Shown: positions 175 to 33,639, numbered from the stretch's first letter. The stretch: 64,000 nt of DNA from an uncultured Candidatus Saccharibacteria bacterium (GCA_964479955.1 CAYZNK010000001.1:13073-77072), one strand, 5' to 3'. Program-made: numbers and translations. Notes: a model not told the origin generated them from the letters alone.

Positions 175-250
175 TGGGGCGGTCGAGGAGAATCGAACTC
201 CCATCATCGGTGCCACAGACCGATACTTTAACCATTAAGCTACGACCGCC
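175..250 (-). tRNA. tRNA-His (anticodon GUG), CCA encoded
   Basis: Hand-folded cloverleaf. Anticodon stem tcggt/accga with loop ctGTGgc; 8-bp acceptor stem including the His-specific G-1:C73; T-arm GGGAGTTCGATTCTCC; 3' CCA present. Confidence 0.85.
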
Positions 251-729: not shown

Positions 730-802
730 ACTTTATTTTATCTTAAAATATAGGTAAAGTAAAGTCACCGTCTTGTGGATATATTTTCTATATTTTATCC
801 TG

Positions 803-874
803 TGCCCCCGGTAGGAATCGGACCTACATCTAGAACTTAGAAGGTTCCTATTCTATCCATTGAACTACGGGGGC
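803..874 (-). tRNA. tRNA-Arg (anticodon UCU)
   Basis: Acceptor gcccccg/cgggggc, anticodon loop ctTCTaa, T-arm GGTCCGATTCC. No encoded CCA. Confidence 0.8.
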
Positions 875-943
875 TTACAATAAAATATTATCACAATTTT
901 TAGTCTTTGACAAGCACAATTTTTTAAGCTATAATTTAAAATG

Positions 944-1017
944 CGGGGCGTCGTATAATGGTAGTACGTGCGCTTTGGGAGCGTACAGCTTGAGTTCGAT
1001 TCTCAACGCCCCGACCA
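944..1017 (+). tRNA. tRNA-Pro (anticodon UGG), CCA encoded
   Basis: Acceptor cggggcg/cgccccg, anticodon loop ttTGGga, T-arm GAGTTCGATTCTC, terminal ACCA. Confidence 0.85.
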
Positions 1018-1055
1018 ATTGAAATTTCAATTTTTCTCTGCTAAAATTTATTTAG

Positions 1056-1129
1056 GCAGGTATCGTATATCGGTATTACCTTAGCTTTCCAAGCTAATGA
1101 GGGGGGTTCGACTCCCCCTACCTGCTCCA
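1056..1129 (+). tRNA. tRNA-Gly (anticodon UCC), CCA encoded
   Basis: Acceptor gcaggta/tacctgc, anticodon stem ttagc/gctaa with loop ttTCCaa, T-arm GGGGGTTCGACTCCCC, discriminator U then CCA. Confidence 0.85.
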
Positions 1130-1133
1130 ACAA

Positions 1134-1160
1134 AATAGCTCAATGACCGTTGAGCTATTT
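1134..1160. terminator. hairpin between tRNA-Gly and the 3' end of the RT gene (possible bidirectional terminator)
   Basis: atagctcaa-tgaccg-ttgagctat inverted repeat, placed right after the tRNA pair and abutting the RT stop codon. Confidence 0.5.
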
Positions 1161-2211
1161 ATTTAATTTTTAGCCAAAACCAAAATTGATTTTTAAGTTC
1201 ATTTATTATTTTATAAGCATTGGCGTGAGATAAAACGCCAAGATAAGACTGCAAAGATTGATTAAGCGCTTGCTCTGTTATTTTTTCCGTTCTAAATTCA
1301 ACAATTCTCTTTTTTAATTTCTTGAACATACGTTTTTTTGTTTTTGTGCGTAAAAGTCGATGGTGTGGCAAAATTATGTATCCAAGAAAATCTATACCTT
1401 GATTAAATTTGCGAATATATACCTTATTGGGGTGTAATCTAAGCCCCAGTTCGTCTGAAAGAAACTCACGAATTTGAGGGATAATATCTTCAAGGTATTT
1501 TTTGTCTCTGGAAACAACGACGAAATCATCGGTGTAGCGTATGTAATTTTTTATCCGCAGTTTCTGTTTGATAAATTGGTCAAACTCGTTTAGATAGATA
1601 TTAGCAAACAATTGGGAGGTAAGATTACCAATAGGCAATCCTTTCTTGAAAAAAATGTTTGAATATTGTGAAGAAAAACTCCCGATAATTTTTTCTAAAA
1701 GCCAGATGGCATTTTTATCTTTTATTCTTTTGCGGAGGATACTTAATAATTTTGAATGGTCGACAGTTTCAAAGAATTTTTTAATATCGCATTTGAGGAC
1801 AAAGCACAGTTTAAATCCATTCTGACTAAGTTGTCTTATTGTCTTGTCTAAAATATCAATTCCCCTATGAGTTCCTTTTTCTATTCGGCAGGACATGGAA
1901 TTTGGTATAAATATCAATTCAAATATAGGGTTAAGCACATTAGAAATGGCGTGATGCAGTATACGATCTCGGACTAGAGCTTTATGTATGCGTCGTTGTT
2001 TTGGATCGCGTATATAAAAAGAAACATACGATCCGTGTTTATATGTTTTGCTTGTCAAATCTCTGTGTAGTTGAAAAATATTTTTCTCCAATTTCCATTC
2101 AAATTGTTGCACATCCTGTTTTTTCTGTTTGTCTGATTTGAATTTGTCCCATGCTAAAAAAAGATTTTCTAGTGAAATAATTTTGTTAAAAATATCTTTA
2201 TAAATCTTCAT
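1159..2211 (-). CDS. DGR-type reverse transcriptase
   Basis: 350-aa ORF with RT motifs. LPIGNLTSQLFANIYL carries the IGxxxSQ signature typical of DGR RTs (group II intron RTs have QGxxxSP instead). The catalytic YxDD box is YIRYTDDFVVV. A TR/VR pair lies nearby. Confidence 0.85.
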   Translation of the reverse strand: MKIYKDIFNKIISLENLFLAWDKFKSDKQKKQDVQQFEWKLEKNIFQLHRDLTSKTYKHGSYVSFYIRDPKQRRIHKALVRDRILHHAISNVLNPIFELIFIPNSMSCRIEKGTHRGIDILDKTIRQLSQNGFKLCFVLKCDIKKFFETVDHSKLLSILRKRIKDKNAIWLLEKIIGSFSSQYSNIFFKKGLPIGNLTSQLFANIYLNEFDQFIKQKLRIKNYIRYTDDFVVVSRDKKYLEDIIPQIREFLSDELGLRLHPNKVYIRKFNQGIDFLGYIILPHHRLLRTKTKKRMFKKLKKRIVEFRTEKITEQALNQSLQSYLGVLSHANAYKIINELKNQFWFWLKIK

Positions 2212-2215
2212 TTTT

Positions 2216-2566
2216 ATGGATGAGTTTGATATACCAATTTTTAAGAAAACCTACGAACTTTACAAGCGGCTCTACGGTTTTCGCAATGCAGTTTCTAAAC
2301 AAGACCGCTATACAATTTGGCAACGATGTGAAACTATGATGCTGGATGTGTTAGAGGGCATCCTTTTAGCAAGTCAGTCATCAAAGTACGATAAACTTCC
2401 TGTATTGGAAAGGGTAAGCCAAAAGCTCAATTTTTTGAGAGTTTTCATACGGCTTATGAAGGAGGTAAAAGCCATTGATAACAAAAAATATGTTCTGCTT
2501 CAGCAGGACATTGATGAAATCGGCAAAATGCTTGGCGGGTGGATTAAATCTGCAAAGGAACGATAA
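2216..2566 (+). CDS. avd: four-helix-bundle protein (23S rRNA IVS protein family), Avd-like DGR accessory candidate
   Basis: 116-aa ORF (MDEFDIPIFKKTYELYKRLYGFRN...) with the typical length and helical pattern of the family that includes bAvd. It lies between RT and TR but on the opposite strand. Confidence 0.7.
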   Translation: MDEFDIPIFKKTYELYKRLYGFRNAVSKQDRYTIWQRCETMMLDVLEGILLASQSSKYDKLPVLERVSQKLNFLRVFIRLMKEVKAIDNKKYVLLQQDIDEIGKMLGGWIKSAKER

Positions 2567-2573
2567 GAAAAAA

Positions 2574-2598
2574 GCTCTCCCAGAGGGAGGGCTTTTTT
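2574..2598. terminator. bidirectional rho-independent terminator-like hairpin between avd-like gene and TR
   Basis: gctctccc / gggagggc stem (7-8 bp, one G.U) flanked by an A-run upstream and TTTTTT downstream. Confidence 0.55.
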
Positions 2599-2611
2599 GA
2601 TGAGGTAGAAG

Positions 2612-2730
2612 TTCCGAGCGGCGGCAACGCCCAAGTTGTCGTTGCGGTTGTCATCCCAGTTGTTGTTGACGTTGAGACCCTTCGCATCGAAGTTGCCGAC
2701 GTTGACACGGTTGCCGTCCGAGTTAACGCT
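2612..2730 (-). repeat. DGR template repeat (TR)
   Basis: 119 bp aligning without gaps to 3093-3211 at an offset of 481. By hand alignment 18 of 19 mismatches sit at plus-strand T, which is A in the minus-strand sense of the TR. The minus-strand reading is Asn/AAC-rich (NVNNNWDDNRNDN). Confidence 0.85.
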
Positions 2731-3011
2731 ATTTGCCAACTTTCGTCTGTTTCACTGGAAATTGAGATTTACTGCCCATAAGAGCTTATATCCTCTTTTT
2801 CCTGTATTTTATTCGGGAGCAGGGCGTTAGCCCATCTCCGCTAAAAGTCGGCAAGAAGTTCTATCTCAATCTTTTATCGCACGCTACCGTTATCCGTGAA
2901 CAACGATACTCTGGCGATGTCTCAAAAGATGAGACGCCTGCGAGGCGAAGCCTTGACCGCACCTGCATTAGCAGACAATTATATTTTACAAAATTTTTAA
3001 GAAAAGAAAAA

Positions 3012-3044
3012 GAGCCTCCAGCGAAAAATTTTCGCCGAAGGCTC
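3012..3044 (-). terminator. hairpin and T-tract downstream of the VR / target-gene stop
   Basis: Nested inverted repeat gagcct..gcgaaaa/ttttcgc..aggctc, followed on the minus strand by tcttttctttt. It lies about 40 nt past the target stop codon. Confidence 0.55.
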
Positions 3045-3082
3045 AAGGGTTCAAGAGGAACAAGCCCTCAAGACTTCAAGGT

Positions 3083-3877
3083 TCAGTCGAACTTCCGAGC
3101 GGCGGCAACGCCCAAGAAGTAGTGGCGGTAGCCATCCCAGCTGAGGCTGACGAAGAGACCCCCCGCATCGAAGCTGCCGACGTGGACACGGTGGCCGCCC
3201 GAGTAAACGCTCGACGTGCGAACGTAGAGCTTCTCGAACAGCCGCTCGCCAGTGTTGAGGTGATACCCGATGATGGTATAGACCATCACTTGGGCGGTCG
3301 GCGTTTCGTCGTCCTTACCCAGCAGTGCCTGCTGTTCCTGCCAGTTCTTACTGGTGGAGTCGGAGACTTCTGTCTTGCGGACGAGTTGCCAGCAGGTTTC
3401 GCCTTTCTCTGCGGCGAAGGACTGTTTGTCATACCAGTCCTGCTGGTAGAACAAGCCCTGCACCTTCTCCCGAATCTCCAAGATGGAGAGCGGGAACACG
3501 GCGACGAGCACGTGGGTGTCCTTGCACTGTAAGAGCACTTCCTCTGAAAACGGAACTTCCGACAGAGCGGCGAACTGACTGCGGGTCGGGTTGACGCCGA
3601 AGTGCTTAATGGCTTCCTCAACGCCAAAGAAGTCCTTGCCCATAATCTCACGGACACGCTTCTGGGAGGCGGTCGAGGGCTCGAAGCCATTGTTCGTCCA
3701 AAAGCGGACGAGGCGGGCACGCATCTCCTTGTCATCGATGGGCATTTGAAGAGCCGTATCGATGGGAAGACCAGCTTGCCGCATCACTCGCACGAACGTG
3801 GCGAGCTGTCCCAGTTGTTTCTCGAACTGAACACCATCTTCCACTACTGACGCTTGGTTCGCGGTGGAGTCTACCAT
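3083..3877 (-). CDS. DGR target protein with C-terminal variable region (C-type-lectin/FGE-like fold presumed)
   Basis: 264-aa ORF. VR codons occupy the last ~40 residues (...SSVYSGGHRVHVGSFDAGGLFVSLSWDGYRHYFLGVAAARKFD). SD-like GAAAGGA lies upstream of the ATG. GC-rich, with shadow ORFs in other frames. Confidence 0.8.
   Translation of the reverse strand: MVDSTANQASVVEDGVQFEKQLGQLATFVRVMRQAGLPIDTALQMPIDDKEMRARLVRFWTNNGFEPSTASQKRVREIMGKDFFGVEEAIKHFGVNPTRSQFAALSEVPFSEEVLLQCKDTHVLVAVFPLSILEIREKVQGLFYQQDWYDKQSFAAEKGETCWQLVRKTEVSDSTSKNWQEQQALLGKDDETPTAQVMVYTIIGYHLNTGERLFEKLYVRTSSVYSGGHRVHVGSFDAGGLFVSLSWDGYRHYFLGVAAARKFD
3093..3211 (-). repeat. DGR variable repeat (VR) inside the 3' end of the target gene
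   Basis: Partner of the TR. The invariant GC-rich end (cttgggcgttgccgccgctcggaa on the minus strand) sits next to the stop codon, as expected for an IMH region. Confidence 0.85.
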
Positions 3878-4056
3878 CGCACACCATCCTTTCTTTTATG
3901 CCAGAACCCGTCTGGCAACGGTCTGTCTCGGAATGAGACGAGCGGTTTACCTCGTTTTACGGGGCAAAACGCTCATCTCACTTAACTTAATCATAGATTT
4001 TAAGGTGCTTTCAATATAAATATATTATATCACCTTATAAATTATATGTCAAGACA

Positions 4057-5589
4057 CTACCTGGCGTATTCAACAACTCTTGTTTCTCTCATAACGGTAA
4101 CTTTAATTTCTCCCGGATATTTTAATTCGTCTTCAATTTTTTCAGCAATTTGCTTTGCGATTTTATGCGCACCCAAGTCATCAATTTTATCTGACTTTAC
4201 AAAAACGCGGATTTCTCTGCCTGCCTGTATTGCATATGTTTTTTCAACGCCTTCAAATTTATTCGCTATATCTTCCAAGTCTTTTAATCTTTGCAGATAA
4301 TTTTCAAGCGTGTCTTTTCTGGCTCCGGGCCTTGAGCTTGAAATTGCATCTGCTGTTTTTATTATAACAGCCTCAATACTTTCTGCGGGATAGTCATCAT
4401 GGTGGGATTTCATTGCTTTTATAACAGTCTCAGACTCCCCAAATTTTTCTAAAATTTTAATTCCAATTTCAATGTGCGAACCCTGAACTTGCTGGTCAAT
4501 GGCTTTGCCAATATCATGCAAAAGCCCGGCTCTTTTTGCAACCTGGCTGTTAGCCTTTAATTCTTCTGCAATTGTTTCAGATATCAAAGCAACTTCCATT
4601 GAATGCAATAAAACATTCTGACCATAGCTTGTTCTGTAAAACAGCCTTCCCAAAATCTGGATTAACTTTTCATTCAGACCAATCACTCCTGTATCATAAG
4701 CCGCTTTATCTCCGGCTTCTTTTATTTTTTGGGCAATTTCTGATTTTGCCTCTTCAACTTTTTCCTCTATTTTTGCAGGTTGTATCCTTCCGTCCTGAAT
4801 AAGCTTATCTAAAGCAACTTTTGCGATTTGCCTGCGAATAGGATTAAATCCTGAAATTACAACTGACTCCGGAATCTCGTCAACTATTAACTCAACACCA
4901 GTAAGCTTTTCAAAAGTCCTTATATTTCTTCCTTCTTTTCCAATTATTTTTCCTTTTAACTCCTCGTTTTGCAACAGAACTGTTGTTGTGGTCAGCTCCT
5001 GAGTCTGGGAAACAGCGCATTTTTGGATTGCTAAAGCAACAATTTCCTTTGCTCTGTTTTGCAATTTTTCCTGATTTTTTTCCTCCAATTTTCTCATTTT
5101 TTCTAAAATGTCTTTTTCGTTTTCAATTTCAACCAAGGCAAGCAGTTCTTTTTTAGCGTCTTCTCTTGAGAGGCTTGCAACCTTTTCCAGTTTCGTTTCA
5201 GCTTCGTCTCTTAATTTTTCCAAGTCTTCTTTTATGTCTTTTAATTTCTCTCCTTTTTCCTGAAGCTCTTTTTCTTTTTCTTCAAAAGAAGCTATTCTTG
5301 AATTTAAAAGGCTCTCCCTGTTTAGCAATAATTGCTGGGCTTTTAAAAACTCTCTTCTCCTTTCATCAACTTCTTTTTGCGCCTTGTCTATTATTTCAGC
5401 TGCTTTTTGCTCGGCTTTTTTGACCAAAGAAGCTGTCTCTTCTTTGACGTCAATTACTCTTTTTTGCAGTTTTGCCTCCAATGTGCCTGCTCTTTTTTTG
5501 GCTATGCTTTGGCGGGTATAATACCCCAAAACAGACCCAAAAATCAAAGATACGGCAGTGATTACAGACAATAATATTATTTGGTCCAT
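4057..5589 (-). CDS. rny: ribonuclease Y
   Basis: 510 aa with an N-terminal TM helix, a long coiled coil, a KH domain (GKEGRNIRTFEKLTGVELIVDE) and an HD domain (LLHDIGKA). Confidence 0.9.
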   Translation of the reverse strand: MDQIILLSVITAVSLIFGSVLGYYTRQSIAKKRAGTLEAKLQKRVIDVKEETASLVKKAEQKAAEIIDKAQKEVDERRREFLKAQQLLLNRESLLNSRIASFEEKEKELQEKGEKLKDIKEDLEKLRDEAETKLEKVASLSREDAKKELLALVEIENEKDILEKMRKLEEKNQEKLQNRAKEIVALAIQKCAVSQTQELTTTTVLLQNEELKGKIIGKEGRNIRTFEKLTGVELIVDEIPESVVISGFNPIRRQIAKVALDKLIQDGRIQPAKIEEKVEEAKSEIAQKIKEAGDKAAYDTGVIGLNEKLIQILGRLFYRTSYGQNVLLHSMEVALISETIAEELKANSQVAKRAGLLHDIGKAIDQQVQGSHIEIGIKILEKFGESETVIKAMKSHHDDYPAESIEAVIIKTADAISSSRPGARKDTLENYLQRLKDLEDIANKFEGVEKTYAIQAGREIRVFVKSDKIDDLGAHKIAKQIAEKIEDELKYPGEIKVTVMRETRVVEYAR

Positions 5590-5677
5590 ATTTTTAACTT
5601 TAATTTAATTTTTAATAAAATAAGCTCACCTGACGTGGTGAGCCGCATAACGAATATTTTCAATTTTACAATCCGGA

Positions 5678-6259
5678 TTATTTTTTCCCTATTACCTCGT
5701 CAATAAGGCCGTATTCTTTGGCCTCATCTGCTGTCAGATAAAAATCCCTGTCAGTGTCCTTTTCCACCTTATCTAATGGCTGTCCTGTATGAGAAGATAT
5801 TATTTCATTCAGCTTGCCTTTCATTTTAATAATCTGCTTTGCTGTAATTTCAATATCGGTTGCCTGGCCCTGGGCGCCTCCGGCAACCTGGTGCAATAAT
5901 ATTTCAGCATTGGGCAAAGAAAACCTTTTTCCCTTTGTTCCCGCAGCCAAAATTACCGCAGCCATTGAAGCTGTAAGCCCTATGCAGATGGTTGATACCG
6001 GGCATTTTAGAAATTGCATTGTATCATAAATTGCCAGTCCTGCTGTGACCGATCCTCCCGGGCTGTTTATATAAAGCTTGATATCTTTTTTGGGGTCTTT
6101 TGAGGCCAAATATAACATCTGGGCAATCACCACGTCTGCGTTTATATCATTTATTGGACCTGCCAAAAAAATAATGCGCTCTTCTAAAAGCCTTGAAAAT
6201 ATATCGTATGCGCGCTCTCCGCGCTGTGATTTTTCTACAATAGTTGGTACTATTGGCAC
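5678..6259 (-). CDS. clpP: ATP-dependent Clp protease proteolytic subunit
   Basis: 193 aa with full-length ClpP pattern ([18 protein letters not shown]..., [11 protein letters not shown] active-site Ser context). Sits downstream of tig. Confidence 0.92.
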
Positions 6260-6339
6260 GTTAATAAATTTTAATTTTTAATTTAAAATTTTCAGCTAAT
6301 TTAAAAAATCTGCTTTAAATTATAAACTCTAAATTAATT

Positions 6340-7650
6340 TTAATGAGATAAATTTTCCAACAACTGAAAAATTTTCTCGTTCATTAGTACATCTTTAGTA
6401 TACTCTCGAAATTGATTTATGTCAAACTTGCTTTTGTCCTGACCATGGTATCCTGAAAGAGCTTTTTCAATCTCATCTGTAACTTCTTTTTCGGAAACTT
6501 CAACATTTTCTTTTTTCCCAATTTCCTTTAAAACTAAAAACTTTTTTATTCTTTTTTCGGCTTCTTTTTTAAAACTTTCTTTTAACTGATCTTCTGTTTG
6601 CTTGGTTGTTGCCAAATACTGCTCAAAAGTGATTTTCATATTCTGGCTTACCCTGGTTTTTAAATCTTTCATTAGGTTTTCCTGCTCATAAGATACCACT
6701 GAATCTGGCAATTCAATGCTGACTTTTTCAATAATTTTTTCTAAAATTTCATCTCTGTGTTTTTGTTTTTCGGCTTCTTTTTTTTCTGATTCAATTCCGG
6801 TCTTTATACTGTCCTTTAATCCGTCCAAAGTATCAAAAGACAATACAGACTCCTTGCCCTGATTTATTGCTTTTATCTCTCCGCTGACTTCTTTTGCAAA
6901 CTGGTCATTGATTTCAGGAATTTCCATTTTAAAAACGGCTTTCAGTTTTACCTTAAACTCCATTTCTTTGCCAATCAAATCTTTGTTTGCAAAATCCTTA
7001 TCAACGGCTACTTTAAAAGTTTTTTCTTCCGCCTCTTTCATTCCTTCTATATTTTCCTCAAAGCCTTTCATAAATCCGCTCTCGCCCAAAACAAACTTAT
7101 CTTCAAATTCTTTGTTGTCTGAAAGGTCTTTGCTTTGATAAACAATATCCACAAAATCTTTTTTTTCTGCTGGGTCTTTTTTAGGAGTAAACTTTGCCCT
7201 GGATTTTTGCAAATAATTTAATGTGTCCTGCATTTCCTGGTCTGAAACAGAAACTTCATTTTTCTTTACCTTTGAGGCAATTCCTTTGTAATCTGGCAAA
7301 ACAACTTCTGGCAACAAAGTAATTATTGCCTTAAAAACAAACTCGCTTCCTTTTGCTATTTTAACAATTGAAACCTCGGGGTTTCCAACGGGCTCTAACT
7401 TGTTTTCTGAAATATAATCAAAATAAACATGCTTTACTGCATGGTCGCCAGCTTCCATAAGCAAGGCTTCTGGCTTTAATTTGTCTTCAACCATTGAAGC
7501 AGGGGCTTTTCCCTCTCTAAATCCGTCAACTTTTACATGGTGCTTTAAGTGCTCCAAAGCATGCGAAAAATGCTCCTTGAACTCGTCTGCTGTTAATTCA
7601 AAAGTTATTTCAATTTGAGACTTTTCCAATTTTTTTTGTTCTACCTTCAT
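6340..7650 (-). CDS. tig: trigger factor
   Basis: 436 aa with N-terminus MKVEQKKLEKSQIEITFELTADEF typical of trigger factor. Conserved tig-clpP order. Confidence 0.85.
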   Translation of the reverse strand: MKVEQKKLEKSQIEITFELTADEFKEHFSHALEHLKHHVKVDGFREGKAPASMVEDKLKPEALLMEAGDHAVKHVYFDYISENKLEPVGNPEVSIVKIAKGSEFVFKAIITLLPEVVLPDYKGIASKVKKNEVSVSDQEMQDTLNYLQKSRAKFTPKKDPAEKKDFVDIVYQSKDLSDNKEFEDKFVLGESGFMKGFEENIEGMKEAEEKTFKVAVDKDFANKDLIGKEMEFKVKLKAVFKMEIPEINDQFAKEVSGEIKAINQGKESVLSFDTLDGLKDSIKTGIESEKKEAEKQKHRDEILEKIIEKVSIELPDSVVSYEQENLMKDLKTRVSQNMKITFEQYLATTKQTEDQLKESFKKEAEKRIKKFLVLKEIGKKENVEVSEKEVTDEIEKALSGYHGQDKSKFDINQFREYTKDVLMNEKIFQLLENLSH

Positions 7651-16164: not shown

Positions 16165-16172
16165 GTTTTTTG

Positions 16173-16243
16173 TGGACCCACCGGGAGTCGAACCCGGACT
16201 TCACCCATGCGAAGGGTGCGTAATGCCATTTTACTATGGGCCC
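16173..16243 (-). tRNA. tRNA-Ala (anticodon CGC)
   Basis: Acceptor stem with the Ala identity pair G3:U70 (gggccca/tgggtcc), anticodon stem caccc/gggtg with loop ttCGCat, T-arm CCGGGTTCGACTCCCGG. No encoded CCA. Confidence 0.8.
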
Positions 16244-16246
16244 TTT

Positions 16247-16272
16247 TTGTTACTGAATTTGCTCAGTAGCAA
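16247..16272. repeat. 26-nt palindromic element, copy B (inverted relative to copy A)
   Basis: ttgttactga-atttgc-tcagtagcaa. Same stem as copy A (one C-to-T change giving a G.U pair), and the loop is the reverse complement of copy A's loop. Confidence 0.8.
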
Positions 16273-16299
16273 GTTCAGTAATTAATTCAGTAATTCAAT

Positions 16300-16446
16300 T
16301 CATAAAACCATAAACAAAGCTCTTATTGTTATAAATCCGGCCCCAAACGCTGTTTTCCATGTCAGTTTTTCTGCCAAAAACAAAGCTGCAAAAATTACAA
16401 CAAATACAACGCTTTTACAAGAGCGCCGACTAAATTTTGGTGTTCG
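16300..16446 (-). pseudogene. remnant of an EamA/DMT-family transporter C-terminus
   Basis: Minus-strand frame reads ...KSVVFVVIFAALFLAEKLTWKTAFGAGFITIRALFMVL*, a typical last TM and C-terminus of EamA transporters. Only ~49 codons remain, with no proper start and an upstream stop. Confidence 0.4.
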
Positions 16447-16476
16447 TTACTTGTTGCCATAAAATTATTATTTAAT

Positions 16477-16547
16477 TCGGGAGTAGAAGAATCGAACTTC
16501 TGCCCTACGGTCCCGAACCGTAGATTCTACCACTAAACCAACTCCCG
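16477..16547 (-). tRNA. tRNA-Pro (anticodon CGG)
   Basis: Acceptor cgggagt/actcccg, anticodon stem tacgg/ccgta with loop ttCGGga, T-arm GAAGTTCGATTCTTC. Confidence 0.8.
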
Positions 16548-16596
16548 ATGTTTTTAAAAATTGTTTATTAAAAATTAATTTAAAATTAAAAATTGG

Positions 16597-18051
16597 CTAT
16601 GTTACCCAGTATTTTTGTTTTGTCATATCGTCCCGCTTTGTTTCAACTTTTAACTTTTCTTGTTTTGATTTTTCAGACAATTGTTTTAATTCTTTGTCTG
16701 ATAATTTTCCTAATTTTTCAGCCTCTGGCTTTAAAAAACTTTCTTTATTATTTTTTGGGTCATCTAAAACATATCCCAAAAGTATATCCAAAATCTGTCC
16801 GATTTTAGGACCTGGCTTTATATCCAAAATTTTCATCAAATCGTTTCCGTTGATTTTTAACATTTTAGCTGATATCGGGTCCTGGGCAACTTTATCAATC
16901 AGATATTTTAAATGCCTTAACTTATAAGGTTCTGCCTTTGGAACTCCAGACCCAATCCTGTCAGCCTGCCTTACCTGCAAAAGCTCCTCAATGTTTTCTT
17001 GCCCCGCATTTTTTACAAGCCTTCTTACCGATGACTCTCCAACCTCGTCAACATTATAATAGAAAAGGTGGTATCTTACCAGCTTTACTATCTTCTCAAT
17101 GTCTTTTTTGGGAAGCTTTAACCTGTTTAGTGCTTGAAACGCTATTTTTGCTCCTACAATTTCGTGATTATAAAAAGTTGCATTTTCTCCCTCTCCGCTT
17201 TTTACTTTTGGTTTAGCAATGTCGTGCAATAAAGAAGCCAGCCTTACATATATATTGAAATTTTTCTTTGCGGAAAACTCCAGGGCTTTTAAGGCATGCC
17301 AATAACAGTCATATATATGATGCTTATTTTGAGGAACTCCGTAATTTTCCAAAAGCTCGGGCAAAACATATTTTAACAAATTTAACTGGCGCAAAAGTTC
17401 AATCCCCTCAACTGGCTTTTTGGACATGATTATTTTTAAAAATTCGTCCCGAATTCTTTCCTGGGAAATCGCTTCCAGCCAGATACTGTTTTTTTCAATG
17501 GCTTTTGCTGTTTTTTCTTCTATTTTCCAATTTCCCTCCAAAGAAGAAACAAACCTCACTGCCCTCAACATTCTTAAAGCATCTTCTGAAAATCTTTCTT
17601 CCGGATTTCCCACGGTTTTTATTATTTGGTTTTTCAAATCTTCCCGTCCGTCAAACAAATCAACAATTTTTTTATCCAAATCCATTGCAAGGGCGTTTAT
17701 GGTAAAATCTCTACGGGACAAATCCTGTTCAATGGTTTTAGCAAATTTAACTTCGTCTGGATGTCTTTTGTCGGAATATTTTGCATCAGACCTGTAAGTT
17801 GTAATTTCTATTTCGTTTAAATTTGTTTTTTTGCTTTTAGTTCTAACTGTAACTGTCAAAAATTTATTTTCATAAAAACTGTCGGGAAATATTTTTTGGA
17901 TTTCTTCTGGTTTGGCATTGGTTGCAATGTCCCAATCGTTTGCCTCCTTTCCTAATAAAAAATCACGCACGCATCCGCCTACAATGTAGGCCTCAAAGCC
18001 CGCTTTATTTAACTCTGAAATAATATTTTTTACTTCCTTTGGTATTGTCAT
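16597..18051 (-). CDS. cca: CCA-adding enzyme (tRNA nucleotidyltransferase, PolyA-pol family with HD domain)
   Basis: GFEAYIVGGCVRDFLLGKEANDWDIATNAKPEEI head domain and LLHDIAKP HD motif. I moved the start to the Met at 18051, because the track's N-terminal extension is antisense to tRNA-Arg. Confidence 0.88.
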   Translation of the reverse strand: MTIPKEVKNIISELNKAGFEAYIVGGCVRDFLLGKEANDWDIATNAKPEEIQKIFPDSFYENKFLTVTVRTKSKKTNLNEIEITTYRSDAKYSDKRHPDEVKFAKTIEQDLSRRDFTINALAMDLDKKIVDLFDGREDLKNQIIKTVGNPEERFSEDALRMLRAVRFVSSLEGNWKIEEKTAKAIEKNSIWLEAISQERIRDEFLKIIMSKKPVEGIELLRQLNLLKYVLPELLENYGVPQNKHHIYDCYWHALKALEFSAKKNFNIYVRLASLLHDIAKPKVKSGEGENATFYNHEIVGAKIAFQALNRLKLPKKDIEKIVKLVRYHLFYYNVDEVGESSVRRLVKNAGQENIEELLQVRQADRIGSGVPKAEPYKLRHLKYLIDKVAQDPISAKMLKINGNDLMKILDIKPGPKIGQILDILLGYVLDDPKNNKESFLKPEAEKLGKLSDKELKQLSEKSKQEKLKVETKRDDMTKQKYWVT

Positions 18052-18081
18052 GCTTTTTGCCTGCACTGAGTGTGCGAAGTG

Positions 18082-18153
18082 TGCCCTCGGCAAGATTCGA
18101 ACTTGCAACGGCTGGTTCGAAGCCAGTAATGATATCCATTTCACCACGAGGGC
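18082..18153 (-). tRNA. tRNA-Arg (anticodon UCG)
   Basis: Acceptor gccctcg/cgagggc, anticodon loop ctTCGaa (27:43 mismatch), T-arm GCAAGTTCGAATCTTGC, short variable loop. Confidence 0.7.
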
Positions 18154-18223
18154 AATTTATAAATTTTATCACAAATTGCATTAAAATCAACTTTGTGATA
18201 TAATTTAAAAACAAACTTTACTT

Positions 18224-18592
18224 ATGAAAAAAATATTGTTATTGGCATTTTTTTCAGTTTTAATGTTTTCGCCGGTTGTTATTTTTGCAGCAGGGCTTGT
18301 GCCATGCGGAAATCCGGGTGAACCAGCTTGCACAATAGGACACTTTTTTGTAATGCTTAGCAATATTTATGATTTCATTGTAAAATACTTAGCAACACCA
18401 TTAGCTGTAATAGCTTTAACAATAGGAGGAGTAATGATGCTGATTTCCGGAGGAAATCCTGGTTTGCAAAAAATGGGAAAAGATATTATATTTTCAGCAA
18501 TAATAGGCTTATGCCTTGCTTTTGGGTCCCTGCTTATAATAAAAACTTTATTGTCTGCAATGGGATTCGTATATATAGATACTCTTCAATAA
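18224..18592 (+). CDS. TrbC/VirB2-like T4SS pilin of the CPR type
   Basis: 122 aa. Signal/TM, then LVPCGNPGEPAC, then two hydrophobic helices separated by GGNPGLQKMGKD. The same architecture forms the N-terminal domains of the 50740-57729 genes. Confidence 0.65.
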   Translation: MKKILLLAFFSVLMFSPVVIFAAGLVPCGNPGEPACTIGHFFVMLSNIYDFIVKYLATPLAVIALTIGGVMMLISGGNPGLQKMGKDIIFSAIIGLCLAFGSLLIIKTLLSAMGFVYIDTLQ

Positions 18593-18631
18593 CAAAATGC
18601 CCAAAGTTGCAGTTCGGTATTCCTGTGTGAT

Positions 18632-19369
18632 ATGATTAGAGGTATGAAGAATTATAAAAAAATCAAACTAAAGGCTATTAAATTAAGAAAACAAGGATTA
18701 AGCTACGGCGATATAAAGAAACAAATAAATGTTTCAAAAAGCACATTAAGCTGTTGGCTTAAGGACATAGCTCTATCCAAGGAACAAAAAAAACGTCTTT
18801 ATACAAATAGTATTGCGATTTTAGCAAAAGGTTCGCAGTGCCAAAAAGAAAGACGCAAAAGAGAGATAGAAAAAATTTTACAAGAGGCGCAAAAAGAAAT
18901 ACCATTGCCTATCCCCTTTGAAACATTTCGATTTTTTGGAGCAGCACTATATTGGGCAGAAGGAAGTAAGGGAAAGTCATTTGAGATAACAAATTCAGAC
19001 CCAATTTTAATTGTTTTTATAATCAAGTGGTTTAAGGATGTTTTTAATGTTTCGTCCGATAGATTAGACGCAAGACTAAACATTTATCCCCAACAAAATG
19101 ATTTAGAAATCAAAAAATTTTGGTCAGATTTGACTGGCATACCACTGGATAATTTTGGGAAAAGCTTTGTAAAACCCTTGAATAAAAATTACAAAAAAAA
19201 TAATCTTTATTATGGGACAATAAAAATAAGAGTAAAAAAGGGGCTAGATATGAAATATCAACTCTACGGTTGGATAAAAGTAATGTTGAAAGACTTTAAT
19301 GAACGGATAGAACTTACAGAGAAAAGATGGATGCACTTGAAAGAATCTTCGCGTGCAGTAAATATCTAA
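18632..19369 (+). CDS. HTH protein with LAGLIDADG-like homing-endonuclease-type domain
   Basis: N-terminal HTH (RKQGLSYGDIKKQINVSKSTLSCWLKD). The internal FFGAALYWAEGSKGKSFEITNSD resembles LAGLIDADG-type motifs. Confidence 0.4.
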   Translation: MIRGMKNYKKIKLKAIKLRKQGLSYGDIKKQINVSKSTLSCWLKDIALSKEQKKRLYTNSIAILAKGSQCQKERRKREIEKILQEAQKEIPLPIPFETFRFFGAALYWAEGSKGKSFEITNSDPILIVFIIKWFKDVFNVSSDRLDARLNIYPQQNDLEIKKFWSDLTGIPLDNFGKSFVKPLNKNYKKNNLYYGTIKIRVKKGLDMKYQLYGWIKVMLKDFNERIELTEKRWMHLKESSRAVNI

Positions 19370-19378
19370 ATTAAGTAA

Positions 19379-19450
19379 GCCCTGCTAGCTTAATGGTAAA
19401 GCTACCGGCTCTTAACCGGCAGATTACAGGTTCGACTCCTGTGCGGGGCA
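19379..19450 (+). tRNA. tRNA-Lys (anticodon CUU)
   Basis: Acceptor gccctgc/gcggggc (one G.U), anticodon loop ctCTTaa, T-arm CAGGTTCGACTCCTG. Confidence 0.75.
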
Positions 19451-19526
19451 CAATTTACTTTACAAAAAAACAAAAATAGAGTATACTAAACAATACTAAT
19501 TAATTGATAATTAAAAAATTACCGCA

Positions 19527-28519: not shown

Positions 28520-28840
28520 ATGATCTCAAAGAAAGACAGCAAAAAAATAGGGGAATTGATGTGGGCGATTATGGTTTTAAAAACTGGCAGTGAAGCGAGG
28601 CGATTTTTTCGTGATCTATTAAGTGAAAACGAGCTTATCGAGTTTGGAAATAGATGGAAAGCCGCCAGAATGTTGGCAAAAAATGTTCCATATACGGAAA
28701 TTGAGAAAGAAACCGGTCTTAGCTCTACGACAGTGGCTCGGGTTTCAAAATGGCTTAGCGGGGGCACGGGCGGATATAGGCTTGTTTTAAATAGGTTAAA
28801 TCATCACAACCTCTCTTGTATTGGGAAAGGTTTGCGTTAA
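28520..28840 (+). CDS. YerC/YecD family TrpR-related regulator
   Basis: LKTGSEARRFFRDLLSENELIEFGNRWKAARML...YTEIEKETGLSSTTVARVSKWL is the family pattern. Confidence 0.8.
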   Translation: MISKKDSKKIGELMWAIMVLKTGSEARRFFRDLLSENELIEFGNRWKAARMLAKNVPYTEIEKETGLSSTTVARVSKWLSGGTGGYRLVLNRLNHHNLSCIGKGLR

Positions 28841-28918: not shown

Positions 28919-29353
28919 TTGACGATGAGAGTGCTCAGACCTAATTTTGAGAAGCGGGGCGGTTTGGTTGATGTGATTGTTCAGTGTTTTTGGACGCGGA
29001 GAGTTTTAATGAAAGCCTTTACCGACGAAGCAGGGTATTTGGAAACTCTCAAAACGGGAAAGGCTGTATATTTTTCAACCTCTCGTAACAAACGCTGGAT
29101 GAAGGGGGAAGAGAAAAGCGGTGCTTTTCAAATTGTTCACCAAGTCTTGATTGACTGCGACGGCGATACACTTATTTATATAGTGGAACAGTTAGGATCG
29201 GGGGCTTGCCATACAGGAGCATTAACCTGTTTTTACAGAACGGTCGCTGAAAACGATTCGCTTTTTCCTGCACCCGATGCTGGTGAGACAGAAGAGCTTC
29301 CGGTTATAGAAACAGAAGCGCATCCGCGCTTTCTCAAGATGCACATTTTTTAG
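28919..29353 (+). CDS. hisI: phosphoribosyl-AMP cyclohydrolase
   Basis: GLVDVIVQ...VLMKAFTDEAGYLETLKTGKAVYFSTSRNKRWMKGEEKSGAFQ...IDCDGDTLIYIVEQLGSGACHTGALTCFY matches HisI end to end. SD GAGGAG lies upstream; the start is TTG at 28919 or ATG at 28925. Confidence 0.85.
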   Translation: MTMRVLRPNFEKRGGLVDVIVQCFWTRRVLMKAFTDEAGYLETLKTGKAVYFSTSRNKRWMKGEEKSGAFQIVHQVLIDCDGDTLIYIVEQLGSGACHTGALTCFYRTVAENDSLFPAPDAGETEELPVIETEAHPRFLKMHIF

Positions 29354-30007: not shown

Positions 30008-30547
30008 ATGAAGAAAAATATCGGTTTACAAAAAGAAAAAGTGAAACTGCTGCCGTACGATCCGGTGTGGGTTGAATTATACAAAAAAGAAGAGAAGCTG
30101 CTTCGCTCTGCGCTGGGAAAAATTGTTTTGGAAATCCGGCATATCGGCAGTACTTCAATCCCTGGCGCTGTGGCAAAGCCGATTATTGATATTGCCGTAG
30201 GTATAAAAGATTTGGAAAAGGCGAGAAAATGCATCGGAGCGTTAAAAAAGATTGGATATATTTTAAAGCACGATGCGAAGGAGCACAAAAGATATTTCTT
30301 TTTGAAAGAAAAAGAAGGCGAAATAACACACCATTTGCATATAGAAAAATTGGGTAGCGACGTATGGAATCGTCAAGTTATTTTCATAAACTACCTTAAG
30401 AAAAACAAAGAAGCGCTTGATAGATATAATAAATTTAAAATTGAGCTGGCCGAAAAGTATAAAAATAATCGTAAGGCATACGTAGCGGCAAAAGTAAAAT
30501 TTATTGATGATATGATTGCGGAAGCTAAAAATAAAAAGAGCGTTTGA
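30008..30547 (+). CDS. GrpB family protein
   Basis: LLPYDPVWVELYKKEEKLLRSALG...IRHIGSTSIPGAVAKPIIDIAVGI. Confidence 0.85.
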   Translation: MKKNIGLQKEKVKLLPYDPVWVELYKKEEKLLRSALGKIVLEIRHIGSTSIPGAVAKPIIDIAVGIKDLEKARKCIGALKKIGYILKHDAKEHKRYFFLKEKEGEITHHLHIEKLGSDVWNRQVIFINYLKKNKEALDRYNKFKIELAEKYKNNRKAYVAAKVKFIDDMIAEAKNKKSV

Positions 30548-30571
30548 CATAATGCCTTGTTTCATGATAAT
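30544..30571 (+). promoter_or_regulatory. sigma70-type promoter for the T-box leader
   Basis: TTGACA (overlapping the grpB stop), 16-nt spacer, GATAAT. Confidence 0.5.
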
Positions 30572-30577
30572 CTGAAT

Positions 30578-30834
30578 TAACATTGAAAATTGCAAAACCG
30601 TTGATTCATGTCCCTGGCATAAAGCTGGGGGTGGGCATGATGAGGTGATTTCTGCGTAAGTGGAAATCCGGCTTCCTCCGTAATCATAGGATAATTGCTG
30701 AATCCCGTCTCGACGGGAGGAGTCAATGAAAGCGTCCCGAGTCGTTTCGGCGGAGGAAACAAAGGTGGTACCGCGAGACAACCTCTCGTCCTTTGAGCAT
30801 AATTTATTTATGCCTGAAGGATGGGAGGTTTTTT
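30578..30834 (+). promoter_or_regulatory. T-box riboswitch leader (tRNA-sensing transcription attenuator)
   Basis: Conserved T-box sequence AAAGGUGGUACCGCGAG at 30761-30777. It folds as a classic antiterminator: A1 AAAGG/CCUUU, 7-nt bulge UGGUACC, A2 GCGAGA/UCUCGU. The competing terminator pairs 30782-30793 with 30817-30828 (12 bp, two G.U) and is followed by TTTTTT. Stem-I, stem-II and stem-III-like hairpins lie upstream. Confidence 0.85.
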
Positions 30835-30875
30835 GTTACTTCCTAAAGCAGTTCTTTTACAATTAGGAGTTAGCC

Positions 30876-31613
30876 ATGAATACGACATTAGGTATTGAGC
30901 GCGAGCGTTTTATTATTAGCCGTTTCGATAATAAAATCATTTCAGCTATCGGAACTTTATTGCCAAAAGTGCAAGAAATTGGAAAAAGTAAAGGCTTGCC
31001 TATCGGTTTGTTTGGCTACGAACTCTTTGCCGGACAAATCGAGGATAGGACTTTACCGTGCGAATCCTTGTCCGTGTTAAGCGATGCATTGATTGTGAAT
31101 GATTCTGTAATGGACGAAGTTGCCGGCCAAGACGGATTGGCATTTGATTTTTCCGAATTCGTTGAGGAAAGCCAAATCGTAAGCTTGGAAGTGAATCCGT
31201 TTGACCGGCGCCATAAAGACATATGGCAATCAATATCTACCGAAAGACGTTCTGCTGCCTCAAGAGTGGCATCCGTCCATGTGCATCTGGCGGTGAACGA
31301 ATGCGAGGCATTGGCATTGCTTAATGCCTGCGGAAAAAAAGAAGTTGAAAGGCTTATCTCAATAGGAGACCATTCTCGGGGGAAGAGAATTGAAACTTAC
31401 AGAAAAATGGCCGAAACTGACGGGATTCCTCCGCAATTTCATTGTTTTGAAGATGTCGTGGCTTACATCAACAATCATGGAGGAGAAAAGAATGTCTGGG
31501 ATCTTGTGCGATACAAACCATCCACGAAAACTGTTGAATTCCGAATGTTCGGGGCAACGTCCAATGTACACGAAGTCATCGAATACGTAAAAGCATGTTT
31601 GGAGTTGCTTTAG
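30876..31613 (+). CDS. glutamate-cysteine ligase family 2 (GCS2/YbdK-like) carboxylate-amine ligase, short form
   Basis: GIERERFII, YELFAGQIEDRT, SVHVHLAV and WDLVRYKPSTKTVEFRMFG match the conserved GCS2 blocks. SD AGGAG lies upstream. Confidence 0.65.
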   Translation: MNTTLGIERERFIISRFDNKIISAIGTLLPKVQEIGKSKGLPIGLFGYELFAGQIEDRTLPCESLSVLSDALIVNDSVMDEVAGQDGLAFDFSEFVEESQIVSLEVNPFDRRHKDIWQSISTERRSAASRVASVHVHLAVNECEALALLNACGKKEVERLISIGDHSRGKRIETYRKMAETDGIPPQFHCFEDVVAYINNHGGEKNVWDLVRYKPSTKTVEFRMFGATSNVHEVIEYVKACLELL

Positions 31614-31627
31614 AAAACATGTAATAG

Positions 31628-31660
31628 AGTCTGCTTTCCTTATCGGTGGCAGACTTTTTT
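31628..31660 (+). terminator. rho-independent terminator after the ligase gene
   Basis: agtctgc...gcagact stem followed by TTTTTT. Confidence 0.65.
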
Positions 31661-31690
31661 AATTATTAAAATAGAGTAAAATAAAAGTAT

Positions 31691-32143
31691 ATGCAGTCAG
31701 AAAACAAAATTTTGTATTTCGCTTATGGCTCAAACTTGAATCATGAGCAAATGAAGCAGCGTTGCCCTGAGTCTGAATTTGTTGGCAGGGCTATGCTGAA
31801 AAATTATAAATTGATTTATGACGGTTACGGGCCGCACAGGCACGGAGCTGTAGCTAACATAGTGCCGCAGGTTGGAGGAACTGTTTGGGGCGGTTTATTT
31901 GAGTTGTCACAAAATGATTTGAAGAAGTTGGATAAATTTGAAGGATATCCCAATGTTTATGATAGAAAAGAGGTTTCATTGGAAAACGATAAAAATGACA
32001 CTGTTGCTGGGGTTTTTATTTATTACAAAAAACTTGAAGCGATAGGGCTTCCAAGTCAGGAATATCAAGATATTATTATTAAAGGAGCGGAACAATGTAA
32101 CTTGCCTCAAGATTATATTTATAAGGTTTTAAAAATTTTATAA
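31691..32143 (+). CDS. gamma-glutamylcyclotransferase (AIG2/GGCT-like) family protein
   Basis: ILYFAYGSNLNHEQMKQRCP ... VWGGLFELSQNDLKKLDKFEGYPNVYDRKEV. Confidence 0.8.
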   Translation: MQSENKILYFAYGSNLNHEQMKQRCPESEFVGRAMLKNYKLIYDGYGPHRHGAVANIVPQVGGTVWGGLFELSQNDLKKLDKFEGYPNVYDRKEVSLENDKNDTVAGVFIYYKKLEAIGLPSQEYQDIIIKGAEQCNLPQDYIYKVLKIL

Positions 32144-32454
32144 CATCAGATTTAAATGATGATTGGTGCCGTAAGATTTGACAAATCGTTATAATATGCT
32201 AAAATACAATATATGAATCAAATAAATCGCCAAATTAATAATAGGCCGGTTACCGGACAGCCAATGTCTGTGGTTTTGTTTTGCTATGCAAAAAGACCAA
32301 CATTCAGCTTATTTAGCCAAGGCGATTTTTATGGAACTCTTCGTACGTAAATTAGTTTAATCTTCCAAACATAAAGAGCGTCTCGGATAGATAAGCCGGG
32401 GCGCTTTTGGTAAGTGCCGTTATCTAGATAGCTCTTTTACAAGGAAAAGCAAAA

Positions 32455-33639
32455 ATGGCTAAGCGGACAATTCTGACGTACTTGTTTTTCGTTTTGGTTT
32501 CTAATTTTGCAAATTCGTTTGCAATGGCAATTTATGTGATTTTTCTGATGTCGCATGGCCTGGATATTTTTCAGGTCGGAGTGGTCAATGCTGCATTTTA
32601 TGCAACTCTGCTGATCTGCGAAATTCCCACGGGAGCATTCGCAGACATCTTCGGCAGGAAGACTTCATATGCACTCTCATATTTCCTGCATTCGGCAAGT
32701 ATGCTTGTTTACGGGGCATCAACTTCCTTTTCGGGATTTATAGTTGCTGAAATGCTGGGAGCTATAGGTGTAACGTTTGCCAATGGCGCATTCGACGCCT
32801 GGCTGAAGGACAAGCTGGATTTCCATGGTTTTGAAAACAGCAAGATGAAATCTGTATTTGCCAAAAAATCGCAGATTTCTCAGCTTGCCAGAGGTATAGG
32901 CGCTTTGATTGGTGCCTGTATCGGAGTGATAGATCTACGGTTGCCGTGGATTGCTGGCGGAGTGATCTTCCTGGTTGGCGGCATTCTAGTGATTCTGTTT
33001 TTGAAAGAAGAATACTTTGAGAAGAAATCAGTATCCTTCAAAGAGAGCATTCTTTTTACAAAAGATGCTCTGAAAAATGGATTTCAAAACAAAATCATCC
33101 GGTTTGTCGCCGCCATGACTTTGGTGCAGATAATTACTCTGCAGGCTCCAAATATGCAATGGCAGCCGTTCTTCATGAGTTACGGAGTTAGCAAGCCTGA
33201 TTTGGGATATATCTACTTTGGAGTTTCATTGGCCATAATAGCAGGATCTTCTCTTTCGTCTTGGCTTTTGCATAAGCTGAAAAAAGATGAAAAAAAGTTT
33301 CTTGTTGTCTCGCAGATTTTTATGGCCGCAGGCATGATTGCCTGCTGCGTCCCGAATATGTTTGTTCTGGCTGTTTTTGCTCTTCTTTTTCACGAATTCG
33401 CCAGAGGGCTTTTTGCCCCAATCAAGGATGACTATATCAACCAGAGTATTCCGGAGAAAAGCAAAGAAAGGGCGACACTGCTTTCAATCGAATCGATTTT
33501 CCACCACATCGGCGGAGTGATCGGTCTGATCGCAAGCGGTTTCATTGCCAAATACTTGCTCATCCCCAACACTTGGCTGATCTTCGGCGGGTTCTTGTTG
33601 GTTACAACTCTGCTTATTTCCAGAAACGGAAAGAAGTAG
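32455..33639 (+). CDS. MFS transporter
   Basis: 394 aa with about 12 TM segments and the loop 2-3 motif GAFADIFGRK. Confidence 0.85.
   Translation: MAKRTILTYLFFVLVSNFANSFAMAIYVIFLMSHGLDIFQVGVVNAAFYATLLICEIPTGAFADIFGRKTSYALSYFLHSASMLVYGASTSFSGFIVAEMLGAIGVTFANGAFDAWLKDKLDFHGFENSKMKSVFAKKSQISQLARGIGALIGACIGVIDLRLPWIAGGVIFLVGGILVILFLKEEYFEKKSVSFKESILFTKDALKNGFQNKIIRFVAAMTLVQIITLQAPNMQWQPFFMSYGVSKPDLGYIYFGVSLAIIAGSSLSSWLLHKLKKDEKKFLVVSQIFMAAGMIACCVPNMFVLAVFALLFHEFARGLFAPIKDDYINQSIPEKSKERATLLSIESIFHHIGGVIGLIASGFIAKYLLIPNTWLIFGGFLLVTTLLISRNGKK

Follow-up and report, generated by a model that had tools for sequence, protein, structure and literature searches.

Which tRNA is read by the leader RNA that precedes a short carboxylate-amine ligase gene in an uncultured Candidatus Saccharibacteria bacterium, and why would such a gene, rather than one for an aminoacyl-tRNA synthetase (aaRS), be placed behind a T-box riboswitch? 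The question is raised by a stretch of 64,000 nucleotides (GCA_964479955.1 CAYZNK010000001.1:13073-77072, analysed as a whole and called the window here; coordinates are counted from its first letter), in which a T-box attenuator stands before a ligase of the short YbdK/GCS2 fold, as a first-pass annotation made from the sequence alone had recognized. The leader is very probably a member of a tryptophan-specific, transcription-attenuating class of T-box riboswitches with a truncated Stem I that is widespread in the Patescibacteria (Candidate Phyla Radiation, CPR). These bacteria are ultra-small and mostly uncultured, have reduced genomes and are generally devoid of amino-acid biosynthesis; to our knowledge, very little has been learned about their gene regulation. 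The T-box mechanism itself is known, and what is new here is its CPR lineage, the truncated-Stem-I transcriptional architecture, the target genes and an alternation with leader peptides that carry tandem tryptophan codons. The elements of the leader are the following.

30544-30571, plus strand: sigma-70-type promoter, a consensus match only (TTGACA 30544-49, 16 nt, GATAAT 30566-71; 11 of 12 consensus positions)

30598-30645, plus strand: truncated Stem I (Rfam alignment, minimum free energy (MFE) fold, covariation)

30632-30634, plus strand: specifier UGG (Trp codon), followed by the invariant purine G30635

30647-30668, plus strand: Stem II, GAUUUC-UGCGUAAGUG-GAAAUC (Rfam alignment, MFE fold, covariation)

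30669-30691, plus strand: Stem IIA/B pseudoknot, a CGG-CUUCCU-CCG hairpin whose loop UCCU (30674-77) pairs with AGGA (30688-91)

30695-30757, plus strand: linker hairpin (30695-30726) and Stem III (about 30732-30756), with boundaries predicted from the MFE fold and the Rfam alignment

30760-30795, plus strand: antiterminator with the 7-nt bulge UGGUACC at 30766-72 (-11.6 kcal/mol for 30758-30796 folded alone)

30761-30777, plus strand: T-box sequence AAAGGTGGTACCGCGAG / AAAGGUGGUACCGCGAG, inside the antiterminator

30780-30834, plus strand: intrinsic terminator with a 12-bp outer helix (30782-93/30817-28), an inner 6-bp hairpin and a U-tract at 30829-34 (-29.7 kcal/mol for 30780-30836 folded alone)

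The promoter, the T-box sequence with its bulged antiterminator and the 12-bp terminator had all been proposed in the first-pass annotation, and all are recovered, by sequence or by isolated folds, at the positions given above. A bulged antiterminator helix of the UGGNACC type is one criterion of the T-box family, and one is present at 30761-77. Antiterminator and terminator both use 30782-30793 and are therefore mutually exclusive; the terminator is the more stable of the two when each is folded alone, and it also prevails over the antiterminator in the full-length MFE fold of the leader. In the closest relatives (L078 and L080 in the numbering of loci used below) the -35 element is unchanged and the terminator sequence is the same, and hairpins equivalent to the linker hairpin and Stem III are present in relatives. 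A permissive local search with RF00230 over 401 nt aligned the full model to 30592-30796 with 46.8 bits (E 2.4e-9), a significant match, though below the curated gathering score of 93 in the release used; the default whole-window Rfam scan reported no T-box. Thus, the two computations by which the first-pass annotation had proposed to judge itself gave a full-length RF00230 match and a folded antiterminator/terminator alternative. The element is a genuine T-box and an outlier of its family: the word canonical, applied to it at first, says too much, given that Stem I lacks its distal half and the Rfam score reaches only half of the threshold.

Does this leader act on transcription or on translation? 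Known T-boxes with an ultrashort Stem I are reportedly translational, and by that precedent the leader could be a translational T-box like those of the short-Stem-I actinobacterial ileS class. However, the helix that competes with the antiterminator is a strong GC-rich hairpin followed by U6, the ribosome-binding site (RBS) of the ligase gene (AGGAG 30865-69) lies about 30 nt past the terminator and is not sequestered, and the hairpin-plus-U-tract design recurs in most relatives, all of which makes a translational mode of action very unlikely. Leaders with a truncated Stem I are handled in TBDB with its class II model (PMC7778990).

The relatives were obtained by scanning one genome per species for homologous loci, which yielded 77 loci, Patescibacteria by their labels (a few of the bin labels are implausible), in two tiers of 44-64% and about 30% identity. 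About 44 of the 77, from both tiers, have a T-box core (GGNGGNAYCRYR) at 117-290 nt before the ligase gene; in L060, L061 and L077 the core is farther off, as a small membrane-protein gene stands in between. The intervening product in the two Moranbacteria loci, L060 (about 3585-3904) and L061 (3585-3908), is an unannotated single-pass membrane protein of about 107 aa. Throughout the roughly 600 kb of CPR sequence examined, the core occurs in leader position only before the ligase gene.

The 5' domain of these leaders is the part that determines which tRNA is read. Stem I of the window has a base formed by a CC/GG helix and a GA (K-turn-like) motif, CCGUUGAU...UGAGG, above which come a 6-bp lower helix (30606-11/30635-40), an upper hairpin (30612-30630) and the 3' bulge G-UGG; the Rfam alignment places 29 nt in Stem I where the model has 78 positions. 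Across the leaders the architecture is the same, with a basal helix, a 6-bp lower helix, an upper hairpin of 5-10 bp with a variable loop, and a 3' bulge of 4-5 nt that ends in UGG and is followed by G. With MAFFT plus RNAalifold, the 5' domain yielded the basal helix, Stem II and IIA, but variable hairpin lengths cost the alignment the register of Stem I, which was therefore re-extracted with UGG as the anchor. For 35 leaders in register, 98.4% of the cells are paired, with double-sided changes at 9 of 11 pairs, and covariation amounts to 0.788, compared with 0.231 for shuffles and no more than 0.15 for slid controls (the register was picked by maximal pairing, which inflates the percentage paired and not the covariation). 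Helix variants such as TCATGT/GCATGA, CTAGTT/GACTAG, CACAGT/GCTGTG and GCGTGT/GCACGC flank UGG in different leaders, and the basal helix covaries as well (CG 23, UA 14). Stem II is 99.1% paired over 9 pairs with double-sided changes at 7; in the pseudoknot all 4 pairs show double-sided changes, 91% are paired and CCGUAAUCA is a conserved motif. The 37 leaders are 96.5% paired over basal helix, Stem II, IIA and pseudoknot together, with 15 of 20 pairs double-changed, a level reached by none of 500 shuffles, and slid controls stay at or below 52%. Compensatory changes separate even the three closest leaders from one another.

The base of Stem I is the more variable part. GUUGAU...UGAGG of the window aligns to the K-turn positions of RF00230, and the GA/K-turn-like motif is kept in the window and five other leaders, whereas many relatives have a three-way junction there: leaders of the second tier (L041 at about 3685-3700, L053, L051, L057) carry an extra hairpin between Stem I and Stem II, often GCC-GNRA-GGC, which takes the place of the motif. 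Together the leaders provide a natural series for T-box structure that runs from a canonical Stem I (L019) through the minimal form to a specifier held in a terminal loop (L049).

This anatomy replaces the one first drawn, in which atgat-gagg-gatttc...gaaatc-ccuc-aucau, the hairpin at 30637-30687, was taken for Stem I and CGU (Arg), GCU (Ala) or GUA (Val) for the specifier, to be read by a tRNA with A73. By Rfam alignment and covariation, gatttc/gaaatc is Stem II and CGGCUUCCUCCG...AGGA is the IIA/B pseudoknot, so that with Stem I misplaced the three candidates fall outside any specifier loop. The additional pairings gagg/ccuc and atgat/aucau are no better than chance (54.6% paired, shuffles 52.5%, 37 leaders). 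The triplets do occur in the sequence, and A73, common in the tRNAs for Arg, Ala and Val, is able to pair with a UGGU bulge; but T-boxes of all specificities have the Stem II loop and the conserved IIA/B motif CCGUAA in which the triplets sit, the bulge is mostly UGGC across the family, and every contextual signal leads to Trp. A specifier of this kind is the least probable of the alternatives weighed here, next to negligible.

Which codon, then, is presented in the truncated Stem I? UGGG (30632-35) is unchanged in 37 of 37 aligned leaders while the neighbouring helices vary. Three unusual leaders fix the reading frame at UGG: in L049 the upper hairpin is absent and UGG occupies a terminal loop, and in L019 and L013, whose Stem I is long and canonical, UGG stands in the canonical GAA-NNN-A context, L019 showing GAA-UGG-A at the specifier position of the RF00230 alignment (71.7 bits, E 8.8e-16). 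At the other end of the tRNA, the T-box bulges of the family are mostly UGGC and the remainder UGGU, and G73 is found in 16 of 17 tRNA-Trp genes from the loci, the exception being L005 with A73. A UGGU bulge occurs together with a G73 tRNA-Trp in L046, and according to TBDB 46% of Trp T-boxes place U opposite G73 as a wobble (PMC7778990); the UGGU of the window is therefore typical of Trp, and the earlier prediction of A73 from it fails.

The gene neighbourhood leads to the same amino acid. Within a few kb of the ligase gene 32 tRNA genes were found, 20 of them for tRNA-Trp(CCA) (P ~1.5e-24 at an expectation of 1 in 40), and tryptophanyl-tRNA synthetase (TrpRS; TIGR00233, 283 bits) is encoded within a few kb in 28 loci; loci with such tRNA-Trp or TrpRS clustering include L003, L005, L013, L021, L023, L027, L029, L031, L032, L034-L036, L042, L046, L047, L050 and L067, among others. 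In L005 (Nealsonbacteria) the ligase gene has neither kind of leader and follows tryptophan genes directly, in the order (222-6451) PfkB-kinase::TrpC (indole-3-glycerol-phosphate synthase, IGPS) fusion, TrpB, TrpA, ligase, GATase1/C26, GNAT and, just downstream, tRNA-Trp. No trpE, trpG, trpD or trpF was found in the 8.7 kb of this locus examined, and the kinase-IGPS fusion hints at a non-canonical entry to the pathway.

Is tryptophan sensed at all in the related loci that have no T-box? About 16 orthologous loci (L004, L006, L010-L012, L015, L017, L018, L020-L023, L025, L052, L058, L068) possess instead a conserved leader open reading frame (ORF) of 16-28 codons with WW, WWW or WxW (MKFNQSIILLNWWRALQ..., ...IWWWTL..., ...NWWWTF...), followed by a hairpin and a U-tract. 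The ORF begins 222-290 nt before the ligase gene (L006, 3754-3900, is an example), and immediately 5' of the terminator in L006, L020 and L025 there is a GCCAUCA with which the UGGUGG codons are predicted to pair. These W-leaders have no Rfam match, RF00513-type elements included. T-box and W-leader are mutually exclusive and interleaved among close relatives, the window having the T-box and no W-leader, and the W-leader looks like a CPR attenuator of the trpL type. Additionally, a second structured element, UUGAUGGCUGG...AGCCACCAGCAC...GUGCUGG, is located between terminator and RBS in most loci of the first tier (L006 at about 3905-3990, L013 at about 700-800); it follows W-leaders and one T-box (L013) and does not occur in the window. 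In L012, a TrpR-like gene stands directly upstream of the W-leader.

Five independent lines thus converge on and point to tryptophan: the UGG specifier, the discriminator base, the tRNA-Trp/TrpRS clustering, the W-leaders and the trp operon. A further possibility is that the leader is a decayed relic, with the ligase gene expressed constitutively or under another regulator such as the nearby TrpR-family protein. The sub-threshold Rfam score, the truncated Stem I and the linkage of a TrpR-like gene in the clade of the window would be compatible with decay, but dozens of divergent genomes have retained the specifier, bulge and terminator precisely, with compensatory changes, which indicates purifying selection on the structure, and the replacement of the T-box by another Trp-sensing attenuator in sister loci shows the regulatory function itself to be under selection. 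A relic is therefore highly improbable; an additional TrpR-type layer of regulation would be compatible with a working T-box.

What the leader controls is the second half of the question. The genes downstream, the hairpin between them and two linked genes upstream are as follows.

30876-31613, plus strand: ligase gene (245 aa), minimal GS/GCL-fold (glutamine synthetase/glutamate-cysteine ligase), YbdK-like carboxylate-amine ligase of a CPR-restricted family

31626-31660, plus strand: terminator-like hairpin that separates the ligase and GGACT cistrons, GUCUGC...GCAGAC and then U6

31691-32143, plus strand: GGACT/AIG2-like gamma-glutamyl(amine) cyclotransferase gene (150 aa; PF06094 59.5 bits with a cut-off of 22.8, PF13772 57 bits)

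28520-28840, plus strand: TrpR-family (YerC/YecD-like) gene (Pfam)

28919-29353, plus strand: PRA-CH (HisI-like) domain gene (Pfam)

The ligase has 251 detectable homologs of about 245 aa, and every named one is from Parcubacteria/CPR. By sequence it can hardly be placed: it scores 16.1 bits with Pfam GCS2 (PF04107), whose cut-off of 21 it does not reach (some homologs carry precomputed PF04107 hits), its NCBIfam matches are weak and far below the cut-offs, and a sequence-profile search of the PDB with the family gave no match even at E <= 1. The AlphaFold2 (AF2) model (pLDDT 95.7) finds YbdK, 1R8G and 1TT4, as its top Foldseek matches (TM 0.72-0.74, 14-15% identity, E 6e-10 to 1e-7), followed by glutamate-cysteine ligases and glutamine synthetases, and the family has the invariant residues E8, E10, E49, E56, H113, H135, H137, R212, E221 and R223. 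Fold match and invariant residues identify a minimal GS/GCL-fold carboxylate-amine ligase; with low confidence, we take it for an ATP-dependent amide ligase, probably a gamma-glutamyl one.

An amide-cleaving partner gene follows the ligase gene on the same strand in about 56 of 78 loci, which bears out the functional link to GGACT that the first-pass annotation had supposed. The slot is occupied by an AstE/AspA-type deacylase in 46 loci, by GGACT in 7 (the window, L041, L053, L055, L057, L075 and L076; also in the closest relatives L078-L080) and by GATase1/peptidase-C26 in 5. Each of these families includes enzymes that cleave gamma-glutamyl or N-acyl amides, and the occurrence of three unrelated families suggests non-orthologous displacement within a single functional slot. 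A search of the window for trpS, AstE and other genes of the cluster found GGACT only. A stem-loop separates ligase and partner in most loci, with a terminator-like score in 32 of 56; being common to most loci, it is a conserved operon feature rather than proof that ligase and partner are unrelated, and it probably sets the ratio of ligase to hydrolase. In L078-L080 the order is ligase, GGACT, TrpR-like, PRA-CH (L078 11349-12585; L080 2656-3430), so linkage is kept despite rearrangement, and from this linkage alone the TrpR-like and PRA-CH genes may be members of the system. Other recurrent neighbours of the ligase gene are a chorismate-mutase-II::SAM (S-adenosylmethionine)-methyltransferase fusion (13 loci), an ABC ATPase (11), a protein of about 320 aa that has no annotation (8), a pyridoxal-phosphate (PLP)-dependent decarboxylase (7) and a YbaK-type aminoacyl-tRNA editing domain (4), in loci that include L008, L032, L037, L045, L047, L049, L051, L059, L063, L066-L068 and L073.

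Several observations weigh against a tryptophan-specific T-box that controls such an enzyme pair. The Rfam score is half of the gathering score, and none of the 18 related leaders tested passes it (which also means that the class escapes routine annotation). Stem I has no distal platform, neither AG bulge nor distal loop; this platform is a hallmark of transcriptional T-boxes and normally clamps the tRNA elbow, and it is also missing from the accepted short-Stem-I ileS T-boxes. The choice of the Stem I register, mentioned above, belongs here too. No tRNA-Trp of its own was found in the window, and the contigs of the closest relatives yielded no tRNA genes. The terminator-like hairpin before GGACT could mean that GGACT is not co-regulated, and the pairing of a ligase with a hydrolase looks futile absent a third step. 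Finally, an invariant U and the invariant G that follows UGG could be joined as a U.G pair next to the bulge; a rigid rule by which the purine is the last base of the bulge would then give the frame NUG (Leu, Val, Met).

Could the same bulge then be read in another frame, as GGG (Gly) or as NUG, which would be GUG (Val) in the window and mostly UUG or CUG (Leu) in the relatives? If the U.G is a real pair, the default frame of TBDB gives NUG (PMC7778990); GGG is as invariant as UGG, and tRNA-Gly(CCC) genes lie near two loci. However, NUG would stand for different amino acids in different orthologs (Leu, Leu, Met, Val) whereas UGG is constant, A73 is the discriminator of Leu and Val tRNAs but the bulges are mostly UGGC, and U73 of tRNA-Gly, correctly noted at first for the tRNA-Gly of the window, pairs with neither C nor U. 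Both of the loci next to tRNA-Gly(CCC) have W-leaders and not T-boxes, and the canonical context of UGG in L019 and L013 also opposes a shifted frame, which we regard as exceedingly improbable.

How would a tryptophan-specific leader of this anatomy work? Transcription would start just 3' of the promoter, and the CCA anticodon of tRNA-Trp would find UGG displayed in the 3' bulge of Stem I. In place of the elbow platform, additional contacts to the anticodon arm presumably come from Stem II and the IIA/B pseudoknot (30647-30691), by analogy with the actinobacterial ileS T-boxes. When the tRNA is uncharged, its NCCA end would pair with the UGGU bulge (G73 as a wobble, or A73) and stabilize the antiterminator, so that the ligase gene is transcribed, and partial read-through of the intercistronic hairpin would allow GGACT to be reached; when the tRNA is charged, the terminator would form. 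The analysis shows the anatomy of the RNA with its conservation and covariation, the assignment to Trp and the ligase fold; binding of the tRNA, read-through and what the enzyme pair does, chemically and physiologically, we infer. Most likely, the ligase and its partner would form a gamma-glutamyl-type conjugation/deconjugation pair that raises the availability of Trp in a Trp auxotroph, by salvage, by trapping or by handling of a Trp precursor; with low confidence, we would assign the pair a part in obtaining, trapping or salvaging Trp or a precursor, and a regulatory role in protein modification is an alternative reading. The broader proposal, in which the ligase and its interchangeable partner are an unrecognised CPR pathway for Trp starvation, a new biochemical route by which Trp or its precursor would be supplied, salvaged or trapped via a gamma-glutamyl-type conjugate, or a modification system triggered by Trp starvation, guarded by two tRNA-Trp sensors, is tentative, and we hold it to be slightly less probable than an even chance.

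Two consequences follow for annotation and physiology: an entire class of transcriptional T-boxes with truncated Stem I lies hidden beneath the curated threshold of Rfam, and the response of a reduced-genome auxotroph to Trp limitation becomes testable. A gene pair that is found under two unrelated tRNA-Trp sensors, near tRNA-Trp and TrpRS, and once in a trp operon amounts to a label that reads 'needed when Trp is scarce'.

The Trp T-boxes of Firmicutes (trpS, the trp operon, rtpA-ycbK, trpX) are the closest comparison, with the same UGG specifier, a bulge of UGGN that faces the discriminator, competing helices, Stem II and the IIA/B pseudoknot, induction by Trp starvation and often U opposite G73 (PMC7778990). 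The CPR class differs from them in that it lacks the distal platform, carries the specifier in a small 3' bulge between short helices and has G rather than A after it; many CPR relatives add a small hairpin, often GNRA-closed, to give a three-way junction; the target is not an aaRS, a Trp biosynthesis gene or a transporter, and the members tested are sub-threshold in Rfam. The ileS T-boxes of Actinobacteria (Mycobacterium) are similar in their truncation above the specifier, with Stem II and IIA/B kept (compare the terminal loop of L049). These are Ile-specific and act on translation, as they sequester the Shine-Dalgarno sequence, whereas the CPR class is Trp-specific, uses a terminator and usually has a short hairpin above the specifier. 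Escherichia coli trpL shares with the about 16 W-leader loci the tandem Trp codons before a terminator and the signal, charged tRNA-Trp; the sequences are unrelated.

On the side of the enzymes, YbdK/GCS2 (1R8G, 1TT4) has the same GS/GCL fold, with acidic, His and Arg residues conserved on the central sheet; the CPR ligase is about 110 residues shorter, only 14-15% identical, Trp-controlled and paired with an amide hydrolase. ATP-dependent gamma-glutamyl ligases are combined with a GATase1/C26 hydrolase or a GGCT-type cyclotransferase in PuuA/PuuD, in AtdA1/AtdA2 of aniline metabolism and in BtrJ/BtrG of butirosin. By this analogy the partner families are shared, whereas the CPR ligase is of the YbdK and not of the GlnA type; the commonest CPR partner is AstE/AspA, and no intervening enzyme was identified in the loci.

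Has the unit been imported, as was first suggested, from Firmicutes or Actinobacteria? It occurs in Nealson-, Staskawicz-, Kaiser-, Moran-, Uhr-, Komeili-, Kerfeld-, Torok-, Brenner- and Jorgensenbacteria and others, and the local GC of 0.40 is like that of the surroundings; such a spread across many CPR lineages and an unremarkable composition give no support to a recent import. No paper on T-boxes in CPR, Patescibacteria or Parcubacteria was found in the searchable literature, nor any description there of this lineage, architecture, target or alternation with WW leaders, the full alignments of TBDB and Rfam lying outside the direct check.

Some other features of the window and the loci touch on regulation or tRNA. 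A strong promoter-like site, TTGACA-16-TAAAAT with an extended TG (within 32178-32454) precedes by about 250 nt a major facilitator superfamily (MFS) transporter gene at 32455-33639, and the terminator-like hairpin in its leader (32254-32270) may belong to another regulatory leader. The window has eight tRNA genes (175-1129 and 16172-19451); the 3' CCA is encoded in those for His, Pro-UGG and Gly, and the two for Arg and those for Ala, Pro-CGG and Lys end at the discriminator. In L074 (8073-8151, minus strand), ARAGORN calls a tRNA with an unassigned four-base anticodon, ttcg, which scores 43.6 bits with the Rfam tRNA model.

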